Assembly (NCBI RefSeq): GCF_030028105.1
Contig: NC_092379.1
Coordinates: forward strand, 1,847,164 to 1,911,163
Length of the DNA: 64,000 nt
Source of the DNA: Mobula birostris
Taxonomy: Eukaryota
Reading direction: 5' to 3'
In this document: piece after piece, positions 41,723 through 59,992 of the stretch
Layout of the letters: each line of letters starts with the position of its first letter
How positions within the stretch are numbered: the first letter of the stretch is position 1
The notes under the pieces: model-generated
Told to the model about the DNA's origin: nothing
What the model saw: the letters and a program-made list of their open reading frames with translations, nothing else
The model's database searches: none
Translations under genes and position numbers: made by a program

Positions 41723-41782
41723 TCACAGCATCTTGGTGGCATGCTTGTTGGCCTCGTCGATGCGTGCTTTGTTCATATCGCC
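41723..41782 (-). CDS. SNAP25: SNAP25-family last coding exon (GDMNKARIDEANKHATKML*)
   Basis: ctgtctctcccgcag acceptor; phase 0; end of the second (Qc) SNARE motif; TGA at 41725-41723. Confidence 0.95.
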   Translation of the reverse strand, partial: GDMNKARIDEANKHATKML

Positions 41783-42246
41783 CTGCGGGAGAGACAGAGC
41801 AAAGTATAGTTTGCATTCTGCATGAGTGGAGTGGCTAGTGGTAGAATTTGTGCAAACGTGAAAACAAATGTACGTGTGCAAGTGCGGATATGTGTGTGCG
41901 TCTGTAAATATTTGTGAGTGTGTGTGTCTATATGTATGTGTGTGAATGTGTCTGTGTGTGCGTGTTTATGTGAGCGTGTGATGGTAAATTAATTGATTGT
42001 TGTGACAGTGCAATGTTATGACGAGGTAGATTGTGAGGTCCGGGGACCACCTGATCCTACAAGGGGGTCACTCAGTCATCTTAGAACAGTGGGATAGAAG
42101 TTATCCTTCAGGGGTTCTGTACCTTCTACCCAATGGAGAGGGGGCAGGAGGAGAAGAGAGAATGTTTGGGTGTTTGGGGTCCTTGACTATTGCTGGCTGC
42201 TTTACTGAGGCAGTACAAGGTGTGGACAGATGTATTACAAAAGTAC

Positions 42247-43208
42247 TGTCATGGTCCGGTCCGTGGACTCAGGACTCCGGGTCTTCCAGCTGTCCCACGT
42301 TTGGTTGAGTTAATCATAGACACCTGATTCCCATCTTGGGGCTTGGAATATAAGTGGCCTTGGGGTCGAGTGTGAGCTGCTGGTTTGTCTTGTCAAGATC
42401 CCCTGGGAGCAACCTGCTGGTAGAGCGGCCACTTGCTATCTTTAGGCCGCATTGGTGTACCATTGCCTCATGGAGCTTTGCAGTCAGTAGTCGGAGCGGA
42501 CTTTGCGGTATGGATTCGGCCGTTTCCTGGGCCAGCTGAGTGGCCATCAGCCACTCTGAGCTAGGTAGGGATCCGGCTGATTCCGTTGTTCTTCGGTGTT
42601 TGTCCCTTCTTGTCCTTGCCTCTGTGGGGTAAGTCAGGCCATTCTGCTGTTGCCTTGCATGGGAACCTGTCTTGTCTTTGCCTCTGTTGGGTAAATCTGG
42701 CTGTTCTGCTGTTACCTGATGGATGGTCCTGTCCCACCTTGGTGTGGAGATAAAGTTGAGTCCCAGTTTGTCCAAGTATAAATCCTGGCTCTATGTCTAT
42801 GTACTGTCCAGTCTTGTGTTAGTGAAGTGTTAAAGGTGAGCCCTGGCTTTTTGAAGGATAAGTCCCGGCTCTATGCTAGCCCGTCTCCAAGCTCCAGCCT
42901 CGAGACCCCAGCCTCCAGTCCTGTAGTCATGTCATGTCTTTGCCTGGTTCTGGGGCCCGAGCCAGAGGCAAGACCCAGGTTCTGGGTCCTTGTCCAGTCT
43001 CTGGCTCGGAGCCCAAGCCCAGGCTCCTAGATCATAGTTCCTTGTCTGGTTTCCCTGTTTCTTGTCCATGTCCTAGCACAAGTCTATGTTCTTGTCCCTG
43101 CTCCTTGTCTGTATCCTGTCACATCCCTACTCTAGTCAAGTCCTGTTCCTTGTACTTCAGTATCTGTGTCTTGCATTTGGTTCCGCTCCCAACACCCCCA
43201 GTGTGACA
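42247..43208. mobile_element. Solo LTR (962 bp) in the last SNAP25-like intron
   Basis: TGTCA...TGACA termini; perfect 5-bp TSD AGTAC (42242-42246 and 43209-43213); short internal direct repeats. Confidence 0.88.
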
Positions 43209-56372: not shown

Positions 56373-59300
56373 CTGCACCATTTCGTGTTGTCTTGGTATG
56401 GAGGGCAGTCACTCTCTCTTTACCACTGAATATGAGCTCCCTGGTCTGTGTTTGGACTCAAGCTGTGACGAAGCCCAAAGGTCAAATCGGAAGTCCAGAT
56501 GTTAAGGCCTGTTGGCCACAGGTGAGCCTGCAAACTTCCATGGGTTGCCTGAAGAGATCAGACCACTGTATCTGCAGGCCTGAGTCTGTGTTTGGTGATC
56601 AACGTGTCCTGGGGTTGAAGGCAAGGATTGAGGCCCGAGTGCGAATCGGAAGCCTGGAAGTCTAGGCCCATTGGCTGGAGACAAGTCTGCGAATCACTGC
56701 AAGTCTGCTGGGGAGGTCAGACCCTGGTGTCTGCAGTGCAGGACCTCAACCGTGTCCAGAGTTTGAGGCCTAGTTTTTGGTGATCGACGTGTCCTGTGGT
56801 CCATGCTGAGGGTGGAGGCCTGGTGGTTGAACCAGAGGCCTGAGAGTCAAATCAGAAATCTGGGTGATGAGGCCCATTGGCTGGAGGCAAATCAGCGAAC
56901 CTCTGAGCCCGCTGGGGAGATTGGAGCCCGGTGTCTGCATATCTTAGTCTGTGTCTGCTGGAAGTTTGGTGTGAGGATAGAGAGTCTGTATGTGTGTAAA
57001 AGGAAGGGAGGAACGGAGCTTGGTCTTGCTATTGATGTTTCCTGCTTGTTGTGTTCTGTGTTGTTCTGCTGAGCATTGTGGGTATGTTATGTTGGCGCTG
57101 GAGTGGGTGACCACACACAGCCCAGCGCACCCTCAGGTCTGTTGTTCTACACATTCTGCTGTATGTTTCAATGTCACATGATAAACAAACCTGAATCTTG
57201 TTTCTTGGTGAAATGCAAACTGGGTATTGTGACCAGGCCATTGAAAAGCATGTGCTGCACGTTAGCACCGTCAATGGCACCTTGCTGCTGGTTGAGAGAA
57301 CACCGGTTGATCAGAAATTAGCCAAGCTGGATTTGTCCAGAGTTTTGTGGATGAGACATACCTGGCAAATTGTCTCTTTGAGATATAGCTGCCCTGAAGA
57401 AGTTTAAATCTTCTCTTTGATGGGAGTTCAGTGAAACTCTCTCTCACTGCTCCCCCTCTGTGATCGCTGGGGCTTCGCTTCTCTTCGACCATGTACCTGC
57501 CCAGACTGGCTACCACAGCCACGTGTCCTTCCTGGGAACCTGACAACCCTCCTCCTTCCCTTTGTCCCAGCTTCCTTCTTCTTCAGCCCTTTACCTTATC
57601 CACCTATCACCTCCCAGTGCCTCACTTCATCCTCACTCCCTCCACCACCCAGCTTTCTCCTCACCTGGTCTCACCTACCACCCACCAGCTTTTACTCTTC
57701 GTCCTCCACCCACTACCTTATTCTGGCTTTTATCTCCCTTCCTTTCCGGTCCTGATGAAGGGTTTTGGCCCAAAACATCGACTGTTTATTCCCCTCCATA
57801 GATGGTGCTTCCAGCAATTTTTGTGTGTGTTTAAATGTTCTGTGTTATCGGGTTGTTGTTAGTCTTGTAGCTGGAGTGGAACAGCTTGGCAGTGCACGTC
57901 TTCAGGACCACAAGCAGGATGTTGTCTGGTTTCGAAGCCTCGACTGTGCCCAGCGCTCTTGGCTGTTCCTTGGTGTAAAATGGACAATTAAATTTGCTGA
58001 AAGCCAGCCTCTGTGATGGTGGAGGAGTCAAAATCTGTTCACAATTTCAGGCCAAACATGGCTTCGCGTTCATCTCTGAGATGCAGGTTCGGGTCCTCAT
58101 TGAGGAGCGGGAAGTTCTGAGAGCCTCTTCTCTTGTCAGCTGCTTAATGGCCACCACCATTCTTGATCAGTTTTGATTTGCTAGTACTGAGACTGCTTGA
58201 CCCTGTAGCTTCACCCTTCTGCAATCCTGTCACCTGGTCCTCGCCATACTTTAAGGTGAGCCTGGGGAGGACGCAACATGTTCCTGTACTATACCGTTCT
58301 GTTCTATGCACCCGTCTCCTCATCAACCAGCACTACCCTGACTGGCACAATCACACTGTGGTTGTCAGACACACAAAGGTTTGCTATCATGCCAGGAGCC
58401 AGTTGGCTGTCACATCTCCTACATGACAACACAGTTACATTCCAAGAGTACCTCATCGCTTGAAAAGTGCTTCAACGTATCCTGAAATGGTGAAAAGCAC
58501 AGGTAAATGTAAGATTTATTTTCTTATAGGAGCTGGTTGCCGGGCAACAGGTAGAAACCACACCAATACGAACACACTAAAAAAGAGCAAGTTCATGGAC
58601 TTTAAGCTCCCAGGCATGTCATATTTGAAAGGAACATAGTCACGGATAAATATACAGGCCCATTCAAAAGATTCTGCTATTGTGTACTCTATACCTTGGC
58701 AGGAGCACATAATCAGCCAACTTTTACATTTGTGTCCAGATCTTACCTCACACATCTCCTTTCCATGGCTTTCCCTTCTCGAATGAGCCATCTACCCTTC
58801 TCATTCCTAGCTTTCTCAACCCTTCGGAACTGGCCTTTAAAAATGGCTGACGTTTCTATAGTCTGGTGGATGGTTAAATTCTTTGCTACAACGCTAATCA
58901 CCTTTGAACATCTTGGGAGACACCAAATGCACTTTGAGCTGTTTCCTTACCAAGTGCTTGCCCTGATACGGCAAGGAGAACATCTTGAATGTAGCTGGCA
59001 CCACTTTGCTCAGTGTAAGGAAGCTTGTAAGCTTGTTGTTGGTGATCTTACTTCTGTGAGAATGGTATCCTGAGCAGGCAACTTGCCTCCCTGATTAACA
59101 GTTGTCACAGAATTAATTACCAGAACCCTTTGCAATGCCAACACCACACTCTTAAGGTTGCTTCAACCCCATTGATGCTAACAAATATTTATTAAAATTC
59201 TGCTCAAATCTGTTAATAGATTTCCTCCTCCCTTTTGAGTGTAGCATGCTTCAGCCCTAGAACCCTCTGAGGTCTTTACTCGGGCACTTCACTAATCTTA

Positions 59301-59874
59301 TTTTCTGTCATTGATAGCCTTTCCATCAGCTGAGAAGGTCTAGATCACTATTACTCCTTCAAGCCCTTTTGCATCTACACGTCTCTCTTGTTCTGAGGTC
59401 CTGCTTAGGACTCCTTGAGCAACCTTTGGATCACCAGAACACAGTGAACTGCTCAGGGCTGTCACCCTTCGTCAGACCTGTTTCCCCATCCGCAGACGCT
59501 ACCCGACCTGCTGAATCTCACTGTTTTTAAACCAAATTTCCAGCATTTCTTATGACTTTAGATTTTGGCCCTAGCTTCAGAGTCGTATTTAGTGGCACTG
59601 AGCACTTGTGATTAGGCTTGGCACCTTGCATAGGTGATAAATAACAAGGTTGTTTTAGTCTTTCCCCTTTCAGATCCAGAGTGACAAGTTGCTCGTTCCC
59701 AGCTCCTTTGCATCTCGGTGGAAATTGGGAATTAATTTCTCAGGGAATGAAAAAACGGGCATATTTGCAGACTGCTTCTCAAAGTGTGATTGGTGTATGA
59801 GTCTGTCAGTAGCTAGATCAGCAAGCAGCATGCAGGCAGGCAGGCGGCCTCTGGGACCGACAGTTGGCACCTAC

Positions 59875-59992
59875 TTATTGCAGGGGCAGGAACAAAGACC
59901 ACAGCATTTGCCCAGATCCGACAGATTTTTTTCTGCTTCTTTCATGTCCTTATTGATCTGATCCATTCCCTCTTCAATCCTCTCCAATTGCT
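59875..59992 (-). CDS. SNAP25: SNAP25-family exon 5 equivalent ([40 protein letters not shown])
   Basis: cttcctcattcag acceptor and AA|gtaggt donor; 118 nt as in vertebrate SNAP25 exon 5; end of the Qb SNARE motif plus the palmitoylated cysteine cluster. Confidence 0.98.

Follow-up and report, generated by a model that had tools for sequence, protein, structure and literature searches.

Among described ray proteins, a SNAP-25 is known from Torpedo marmorata (Risinger et al. 1993). A passage in a later paper (PMC2581893) gives its identity to mouse SNAP-25b as 81%, describes it as lacking the duplicated exon 5, and treats it as the ray SNAP25 ortholog; that passage places the SNAP-25a/b exon duplication in early bony fish on the basis of the Torpedo sequence. 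In mice carrying an engineered stop at G204 (SNAP25-delta3), fusion is kept and the affinity for G-protein beta-gamma is lost (PMC10541194; bioRxiv 10.1101/280347). In bony vertebrates, a SNAP25-like gene of the zgc:101731 type is among the top markers of a gill neuron cluster in zebrafish (PMC9203529), and passages of three further papers (PMC5337974, PMC13069148, and PMC3153206) contain nothing on a SNAP25-like paralog. Here, we compare these systems with a SNAP-25-type gene found in a 64,000-nucleotide stretch of the Mobula birostris genome (contig NC_092379.1), referred to below as the window.

Exon structure of the window gene and its 3′ neighbor

Four coding exons of the SNAP gene are present in the window, and exons 1 to 4 lie past its end:

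59875..59992, minus strand: exon 5 equivalent, b-type (118 nt); end of the first SNARE helix and the five-cysteine cluster
47543..47677, minus strand: exon 6 equivalent (135 nt); linker with three extra residues and the QPARV motif
44601..44745, minus strand: exon 7 equivalent (145 nt); most of the second SNARE helix, central Gln kept
41723..41782, minus strand: last coding exon (60 nt including the TGA stop); ends ML-stop

Each exon has an AG acceptor and a GT donor, the phases are compatible, and the exons join into a single open frame of 151 residues ending in ML-stop. A preliminary description had reported these exons together with the five cysteines, the linker start, QPARV, and the ML end, all of which we recovered in place on the minus strand. 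Judged by its sequence, the gene is a member of the SNAP-25 family (a Qbc SNARE, PF00835). The Pfam SNAP-25 profile matches the 135-nt exon with an E value of 2e-18 and P0126, an elasmobranch “SNAP25” of 210 aa, with 1.8e-26, while the 145-nt exon matches SNAP25 chains in the PDB (E 9e-19), aligning without gaps along the second helix. The central Gln of the first helix is encoded outside the window and is kept in P0126. The window protein is identical to P0126 at 151/151 residues and to nine 210-aa records at 147 to 151 of 151, whereas it matches five canonical cartilaginous SNAP25 records at just 113 to 120 of 151. Likewise, the 135-nt exon is 95 to 98% identical to six elasmobranch SNAP25-like proteins versus 78% to canonical shark SNAP25. 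The linker is three residues longer than that of canonical SNAP25, consistent with an exon of 135 rather than 126 nt, and the five-cysteine cluster and QPARV are putative membrane-anchoring motifs. The stop falls three residues before the canonical SNAP25 end, and the next two codons after it encode Ser and Ala. Searches of the window for a second exon 5 (tblastn and blastn, a- and b-type queries) returned 59875..59992 as the sole match; an a-type exon could sit upstream, beyond the window end.

Convergent with the SNAP gene is a COX7A-type gene, of which we located three coding exons:

9115..9228, plus strand: COX7A-type coding exon (114 nt); best PDB match COX7A1, weak (E 0.005)
13323..13407, plus strand: COX7A-type coding exon (85 nt); PDB matches to COX7A1, COX7A2, and COX7A2L
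17973..18031, plus strand: probable final coding exon including the stop codon, selected on phase and visual resemblance

The last of these was chosen from eight pattern candidates, and a PDB search with it alone gave no match. For 13323..13407, PDB scores reach 35.8 bits for COX7A1, 32.3 for COX7A2, and 22.7 for COX7A2L; COX7A1 is the top match for both 9115..9228 and 13323..13407, by small margins, and in the latter it leads by 3.5 bits across 28 residues. On these scores we lean toward COX7A1 as the 3′ neighbor, and the 19q13 link of the window gene leans in turn on this one neighbor, identified as COX7A1 by a few bits. In humans, the 3′ neighbor of SNAP25 is MKKS, in a neighborhood of ANKEF1, MKKS, and JAG1. 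A Pfam scan of positions 1 to 41000 for MKKS gave retroelement domains and one SNAP exon only, at low sensitivity: the 269 stop-free frames scanned (267 of 324 candidates of at least 42 aa outside repeats plus two SNAP control exons) yielded no domain for either COX7A frame or for one of the two controls. The fused gene model P0336 provided no usable synteny.

Relationship to canonical SNAP25 and SNAP23

Divergence and rearrangement aside, the window gene could simply be the mammalian SNAP25 ortholog in rays, as the Torpedo literature assumes and as the RefSeq name of the 210-aa proteins (“synaptosomal-associated protein 25”) and their 81% identity to mammalian SNAP25b would suggest. Yet the same species hold a 206- to 207-aa gene on another chromosome that is 89 to 96% identical to mammalian and bird SNAP25. 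This canonical gene is present in at least six cartilaginous species, including sharks, skates, and a chimaera, so that the 206-aa records are unlikely to be artifacts. It lies on an 83.6-Mb contig versus 16.7 Mb for the 210-aa gene in Amblyraja, on 70.7 versus 15.6 Mb in Rhinoraja, and on 426 versus 49.4 Mb in S. torazame. Compared with the mammalian b form, canonical cartilaginous b forms are 92.6 to 95.9% identical and the 210-aa type 80.9% (161/199). In every tree, canonical cartilaginous SNAP25 clusters with bony-vertebrate SNAP25 without the window gene; support in four trees was 98/97 (21 of 57 starting rows, long outgroups and near-copies, left out), 97/97, 100/99, and 94/93. A grouping of the elasmobranch lineage with bony SNAP25 is rejected by the AU test (P = 0.040 and 0.017) and appears in 0/1000 bootstraps of the tree with SNAP23 as sole outgroup and exon 5 dropped. 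We regard simple orthology as highly improbable: the window gene is a third SNAP25/SNAP23 lineage, not the ortholog of mammalian SNAP25, and the proposal of the preliminary description that it falls outside bony-vertebrate SNAP25, with a separate SNAP25 locus elsewhere, is borne out. Because the canonical genes of cartilaginous and bony vertebrates cluster by gene rather than by species, the split between the two predates the shark/bony split.

The lineage is also distinct from SNAP23, to which it is 68% identical versus 83% to canonical shark SNAP25; SNAP23 forms its own clade at 100/99 without the window gene, among rows that included no cartilaginous SNAP23. The protein had been described as a mix of SNAP25 and SNAP23 features, but we find no mix, since four of six lamprey/hagfish proteins compared share the long linker and five cysteines taken to be SNAP23-like (the lamprey proteins P0074 and P0246 had entered a preliminary quick tree as outgroup). 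These traits are thus ancestral, and canonical SNAP25, in which the long linker is absent (0/12 versus 14/16), carries a derived deletion. The window gene lacks both canonical traits, the short linker and the GSG tail, and its long linker places the split of the lineage before canonical SNAP25 took shape.

Origin of the lineage and its relatives in bony vertebrates

SNAP25-like candidates occur in coelacanth, lungfish, ray-finned fish (the zebrafish zgc:101731 type), axolotl, turtles, and snakes, and they are probable orthologs of the elasmobranch lineage. The join is moderately supported, at 931, 837, 746, 612, and 63 of 1000 bootstraps in five trees; the first two used invertebrate outgroups, the fourth had P0216 labeled a-type though it is b-type, and the last had SNAP23 as sole outgroup with exon 5 dropped. 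The AU test gives P = 0.238 for both groups as one clade. Their a-type exon 5s also form one group (88/82); outside exon 5, no alignment column is unique to the join. Our best overall explanation, in which we have reasonable confidence, is an intact SNAP25-family gene distinct from canonical SNAP25, likely a third copy from the early vertebrate genome doublings that probably survives in sharks, rays, and many bony vertebrates. The lineage has likely been lost in mammals; all six mammal and bird rows among the best 120 of 1947 matches are consistent with loss in both groups. The preliminary description had seen in the gene a 19q13-paralogon copy retained in cartilaginous fish; the separate old lineage holds up, but retention in cartilaginous fish alone is too narrow, given the probable ortholog in many bony vertebrates.

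We considered whether the elasmobranch and bony SNAP25-like genes are instead two different genome-doubling leftovers, one sister to SNAP25 and one to SNAP23, reciprocally lost, with each of the four copies still present in some jawed vertebrate. Four alignment columns set the bony gene and SNAP23 against the elasmobranch gene and SNAP25, and with SNAP23 as sole outgroup and exon 5 dropped the bony gene joins SNAP23 in 771/1000 bootstraps; in the tree with 837/1000 for the elasmobranch-bony join, the AU test gives P = 0.225 for this grouping. Moreover, the a-type exon common to both groups falls closest to the insect-like outgroup, and the resemblance may therefore be ancestral. With invertebrate outgroups, however, the elasmobranch-bony join returns at the 931 and 837 given above and bony gene plus SNAP23 at 0/1000. 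SNAP23 forms a long branch, no species has both types among the matches listed, and two reciprocal losses are required; we consider this arrangement unlikely.

The lineage could also stem from an ancient duplication of SNAP25 alone, the copy having relocated to a different chromosome. A position as sister to all SNAP25 (AU P = 0.303 and 0.074) would be given by a later single-gene duplication too, the exon 5a/5b layout is common to both genes, and the lineage is closer in identity to canonical shark SNAP25 than to SNAP23. Against this stand the long linker, kept as in lamprey and hagfish, and the low recovery of the sister position (1 to 217 of 1000 bootstraps). The COX7A family of the neighbor, too, has copies within the same paralogous blocks as SNAP25 and SNAP23. 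We judge such a duplicate to be rather improbable. Within the favored genome-doubling origin, AU values for the lineage as sister to SNAP25 or to SNAP23 are 0.244 and 0.225, and a grouping with SNAP23 reaches 905/1000 in the unrooted 612/1000 tree but 3 to 4 of 1000 with invertebrate outgroups.

The elasmobranch gene pair, exon 5, and comparison with known systems

Elasmobranchs carry two copies of the lineage, of 209 and 210 aa, which join at 100/100, are 94.7% identical, and differ in a three-residue tail. All nine 210-aa records end at ML, all 20 209-aa records have three more residues, and all nine canonical cartilaginous records end in GSG. The two genes lie on equal-sized contigs in 4/4 species where both are singly readable, and their accessions are adjacent in Mobula hypostoma, Leucoraja, and S. 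torazame; a tandem duplication within elasmobranchs is likely. That there are two copies had been overlooked in the preliminary description. Exons 2, 6, 7, and 8 differ within one species, which rules out isoforms of one gene. We also looked for gene conversion within the pair; of 21 variable columns, a single change matched by species between the copies (Rhinoraja) and a single site shared by skates are too little to indicate it. The 209-aa copy keeps two alternative exon 5s and the tail, whereas the 210-aa copy appears to keep the b-type exon only and to have lost the tail, probably because the first codon of the tail turned into a stop.

Database gene models contain two alternative exon-5 isoforms for canonical cartilaginous SNAP25 and for the 209-aa copy, and a lamprey gene has two as well. 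The b-type exons group across genes (84/75), unlike the a types, and the a-type exons of the two genes may stem from two separate duplications. The 81% reported for Torpedo in the passage cited above fits the 210-aa type and not the canonical gene (93 to 96%); 209-aa forms are likewise 80 to 83% identical to the mammalian b form, so this value points to the lineage and does not tell its two copies apart. The lack of a duplicated exon 5 described for Torpedo also fits the 210-aa gene. The classical Torpedo “SNAP-25”, known to us through a citing paper, thus most likely belongs to the window lineage and, as had been proposed, is not the mammalian SNAP25 ortholog. If so, with both exons present in canonical shark and chimaera SNAP25, the published dating is wrong, the two splice forms are older than it allows, and the 5a/5b switch dates back at least to the origin of jawed vertebrates.

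From its conservation, the 210-aa protein is predicted to act like SNAP25: its cysteine cluster would be palmitoylated and anchor it to the plasma membrane, and its two helices would join the SNARE bundle with syntaxin and VAMP, so that neuronal vesicles fuse in response to calcium. If it behaves as in the SNAP25-delta3 mouse, fusion would be normal and inhibition by G-protein beta-gamma weaker. Rays would then have a natural SNAP25-type protein lacking the tail through which transmitter release is restrained in mammals, and the 209/210-aa pair would be a natural test of whether tail loss tunes the beta-gamma brake. Because different tails occur in SNAP23 and in many of the bony orthologs, the tail may be less important in non-mammals. 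A more far-reaching reading, which we offer tentatively and regard as doubtful, makes the lineage the missing partner of SNAP23, created by the second genome doubling, in which the ancestral SNAP25-like, neuronal sequence and both exons 5a and 5b persisted whereas SNAP23 evolved rapidly and gave up one exon; 5a/5b would then be older than the first genome doubling, and the electric-ray “SNAP-25” would be a b-fixed tandem copy of rays and sharks, a natural delta3 freed from the beta-gamma brake.

That sharks retain copies from the genome doublings is in itself a well-known pattern. The additional SNAP25-like gene of zebrafish, amphibians, turtles, and snakes, which has no name of its own, could hide the effect of knockouts or appear in expression data under the wrong label “snap25”.

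Compared with vertebrate SNAP25 (PF00835; PDB 1SFC and 6MDM, among others), the window lineage shares exon sizes and phases, two SNARE helices, the cysteine cluster, QPARV, and 81% identity. It differs in three extra linker residues, five cysteines, the absence of a GSG tail, one exon 5 seen, a COX7A-type 3′ neighbor, and a clade apart from canonical cartilaginous SNAP25. At the position equivalent to Ser187, the window protein has Met. The bony-vertebrate SNAP25-like genes resemble the lineage in their long linker and an a-type exon 5 with the same DMAxCC motif, and eel, paddlefish, and gar have two exon-5 isoforms; they differ in being identical at 101 to 115 of 151 residues, faster evolving, and varied in their tails. 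SNAP23 has five cysteines and the long linker start in common with the window protein, a likeness that is mostly ancestral, and one clean column (Ser versus Gly) in common with both SNAP25-like groups, but its linker and N terminus are unlike. Finally, the engineered SNAP25-delta3 protein ends at the same residue as the 210-aa type, whereas the latter is natural, kept in 9/9 records, and a paralog that otherwise differs by about 19% and shares its genome with tailed copies.

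Structure and surroundings of the window gene

The minus-strand SNAP25-family gene of the window, read by six-frame translation and inspection of splice sites, contributes four exons (118, 135, 145 and 60 nt) whose splice sites are AG/GT. Joined, they give a single frame of 151 residues ending in ML-stop, which agrees with the 135-nt exon and C-terminus reported in a preliminary description. The first exons lie past the window end, and all comparisons past the window edges draw on protein collections. A COX7A-type gene lies 3' in convergent orientation; COX7A1 is the top match for both of its testable exons, by small margins. 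Three assembly gaps between the two genes (20524-20829, 23862-24001 and 39899-40166; 714 N) could conceal small exons. Internal repeats make up about 31% of the window, and these further features were observed:

10180-11004, plus strand: retroelement remnant (27566-28111 likewise), the two giving reverse-transcriptase and ALKBH8_N-type Pfam hits
27566-28111, minus strand: retroelement remnant
about 61200-62600: long tandem array, degenerate, with a repeat unit of ~25 bases; spotted by eye, on the upstream side of exon 5

Three SNAP25-type genes in sharks and rays

With the 135-nt exon as query, all 12 candidates matched: six named elasmobranch proteins (95-98%), zebra-shark SNAP25 (78%), three salmonid rows (73%) and two unnamed fragments. 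Cluster listings show three kinds of shark and ray SNAP25-type protein: the canonical form, which has 206 aa and a GSG end, and two others of 209 and 210 aa. The window protein is identical to a 210-aa form (P0126) at 151/151 residues, versus only 113-120/151 for canonical cartilaginous forms. The canonical gene lies on another, larger contig than the 210-aa gene in the three species where both are singly readable. The 209- and 210-aa genes occupy contigs of matching size in 4/4 species where these two are singly readable and have adjacent accession numbers in three species, which suggests a tandem pair; the 209-aa partner would lie upstream of the window gene, because the COX7A gene occupies the 3' side. 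In Rhinoraja, exon 5 of both paralogues (P0132 and P0147) carries an Arg peculiar to that species, which may reflect gene conversion between the copies.

Every tree places the canonical SNAP25 of shark, skate and chimaera with its bony-vertebrate counterpart and leaves the window gene out (support in five trees 98/97, 97/97, 98/97, 100/99 and 94/93), and the elasmobranch 209/210-aa pair forms a single clade (100/100). As the preliminary description had anticipated, the window gene stands apart from bony SNAP25. Cartilaginous fish also possess a canonical gene that groups there. Forcing the pair with bony SNAP25 was rejected in two data sets (p-AU 0.040 and 0.017).

The 209-aa protein as query gave 1947 hits from 1988 candidates. 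Among the best 120, 78 score closer to canonical SNAP25, including 6/6 mammal or bird rows, and 42 closer to the SNAP25-like set. Coelacanth, lungfish, gar, bowfin, sturgeons, eels, cyprinids, salmonids, axolotl and turtles all have SNAP25-like rows, and additional ones are from snakes and a lizard. In two trees without snakes and lizard, bony SNAP25-like rows (zebrafish zgc:101731 type) form a clade (91/81 and 97/85). Four data sets unite this clade with the elasmobranch pair, at 931, 837, 746 and 612 bootstraps per 1000, but a fifth does so in only 63/1000; four alignment columns also speak against the join. We consider it probable that the pair and the bony SNAP25-like gene are orthologous. 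The copy is retained in cartilaginous fish, as proposed, but, given this moderate join, is only probably shared with bony vertebrates rather than confined to them. Snake and horned lizard sequences (P0244, P0301, P0303, P0311) are far more diverged than turtle in the linker and second helix, suggesting relaxed constraint en route to loss. Extra salamander "SNAP25-like" proteins of axolotl and newts (P0071, P0099, P0206) fall within the canonical clade in a quick tree and are apparently a salamander-specific SNAP25 duplicate.

The window protein had been described as mixing SNAP25 and SNAP23 features. The long linker (14/16 SNAP25-like, 0/12 canonical rows) and the five cysteines (8/8 SNAP23 rows) are instead ancestral, each occurring in 4/6 lamprey/hagfish rows. 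Neither SNAP25 nor SNAP23 is rejected as sister to the lineage (p-AU 0.244 and 0.225). In the ACTN1/4 versus 2/3, EHD2/4 versus 1/3 and PLCB1/3 families, the partner of 19q13 is 14q/15q; on that pattern, a copy of 19q13 type is expected to be the twin of SNAP23. One clean column and an unrooted split (905/1000) agree with SNAP23 as twin; in trees with invertebrate outgroups SNAP23 falls outside, as a long branch would.

Torpedo SNAP-25 and the age of the exon 5 pair

PMC2581893 gives 81% identity between Torpedo SNAP-25 and mouse SNAP-25b. It notes the exon 5 duplication as described in bony fish and not in Torpedo, and on these grounds places its origin in early bony fish. Identity to a mammalian b form is 80.9% (161/199) for the 210-aa protein, versus 95.2% and 92.6% for canonical b forms of catshark and chimaera. 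Judged by these identities, Torpedo SNAP-25 most likely belongs to the window-gene lineage and, as had been suspected, would then not be the orthologue of mammalian SNAP25.

Canonical cartilaginous SNAP25 has both exon 5 types in chimaera (P0501, a; P0049, b) and catshark (P0153, a; P0224, b), so the pair, as judged from database gene models, dates back to the origin of jawed vertebrates or earlier. Both types also occur in the 209-aa gene of at least seven species and in eel and paddlefish SNAP25-like genes; read-through models of gar and a halosaur have the order a then b, like canonical Labeo SNAP25. The exon pairs of the two genes likely share one origin. A SNAP25-type gene of the lamprey Lethenteron reissneri has two alternative exon 5s at the same position (P0211, isoform X1; P0017, isoform X2), hinting at a pair older than the jawed/jawless split or at a second origin. 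The window gene has a single b-type exon 5, with no second one found in 4 kb upstream and 12 kb downstream, and all nine 210-aa records among those listed are b type.

The window-gene finding is real and has useful consequences for the history of SNAP25. RefSeq already contains these elasmobranch proteins under the names "SNAP25" or "SNAP25-like". Among the literature matches listed, we found none in which a third SNAP25/23 paralogue is named, the Torpedo protein is reassigned or exon 5a/5b is described in cartilaginous fish; prior notice may exist.

Predicted function and the C-terminal tail

The lineage keeps the helix layers, central glutamines, cysteine cluster and QPARV. Proteins with these features are plasma-membrane Qbc SNAREs of regulated exocytosis, and the window-gene protein is therefore predicted to act as one. 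In PMC9203529, the zebrafish gene ranks among the top markers of a gill neuron cluster, which fits neuronal use.

Window 41723-41782 (minus strand) encodes Met in place of the PKC site Ser187, a replacement present in 29/29 elasmobranch records of 209 or 210 aa; Ser is mostly retained in canonical cartilaginous forms. Near the C-terminus the same exon encodes Lys-His. Canonical SNAP25 of cartilaginous fish and mammals has Gln-Arg there, the bond cleaved by botulinum A, and Lys-His also occurs in the canonical SNAP25 of Xenopus (P0020).

The stop in all nine 210-aa records coincides with that of the engineered G204-stop mouse (SNAP25-delta3), and three further residues are present in 20/20 209-aa and 9/9 canonical cartilaginous records. 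In the window, codons for Ser and Ala follow the stop, which suggests that a stop replaced the codon of the first tail residue. PMC10541194 and bioRxiv 10.1101/280347 report that the G204-stop truncation lowers G-beta-gamma affinity with fusion intact. By analogy with this mouse, the 210-aa copy may be specialised for release under a weaker GPCR brake. A caveat is that tails vary in SNAP23 and among the bony SNAP25-like orthologues.
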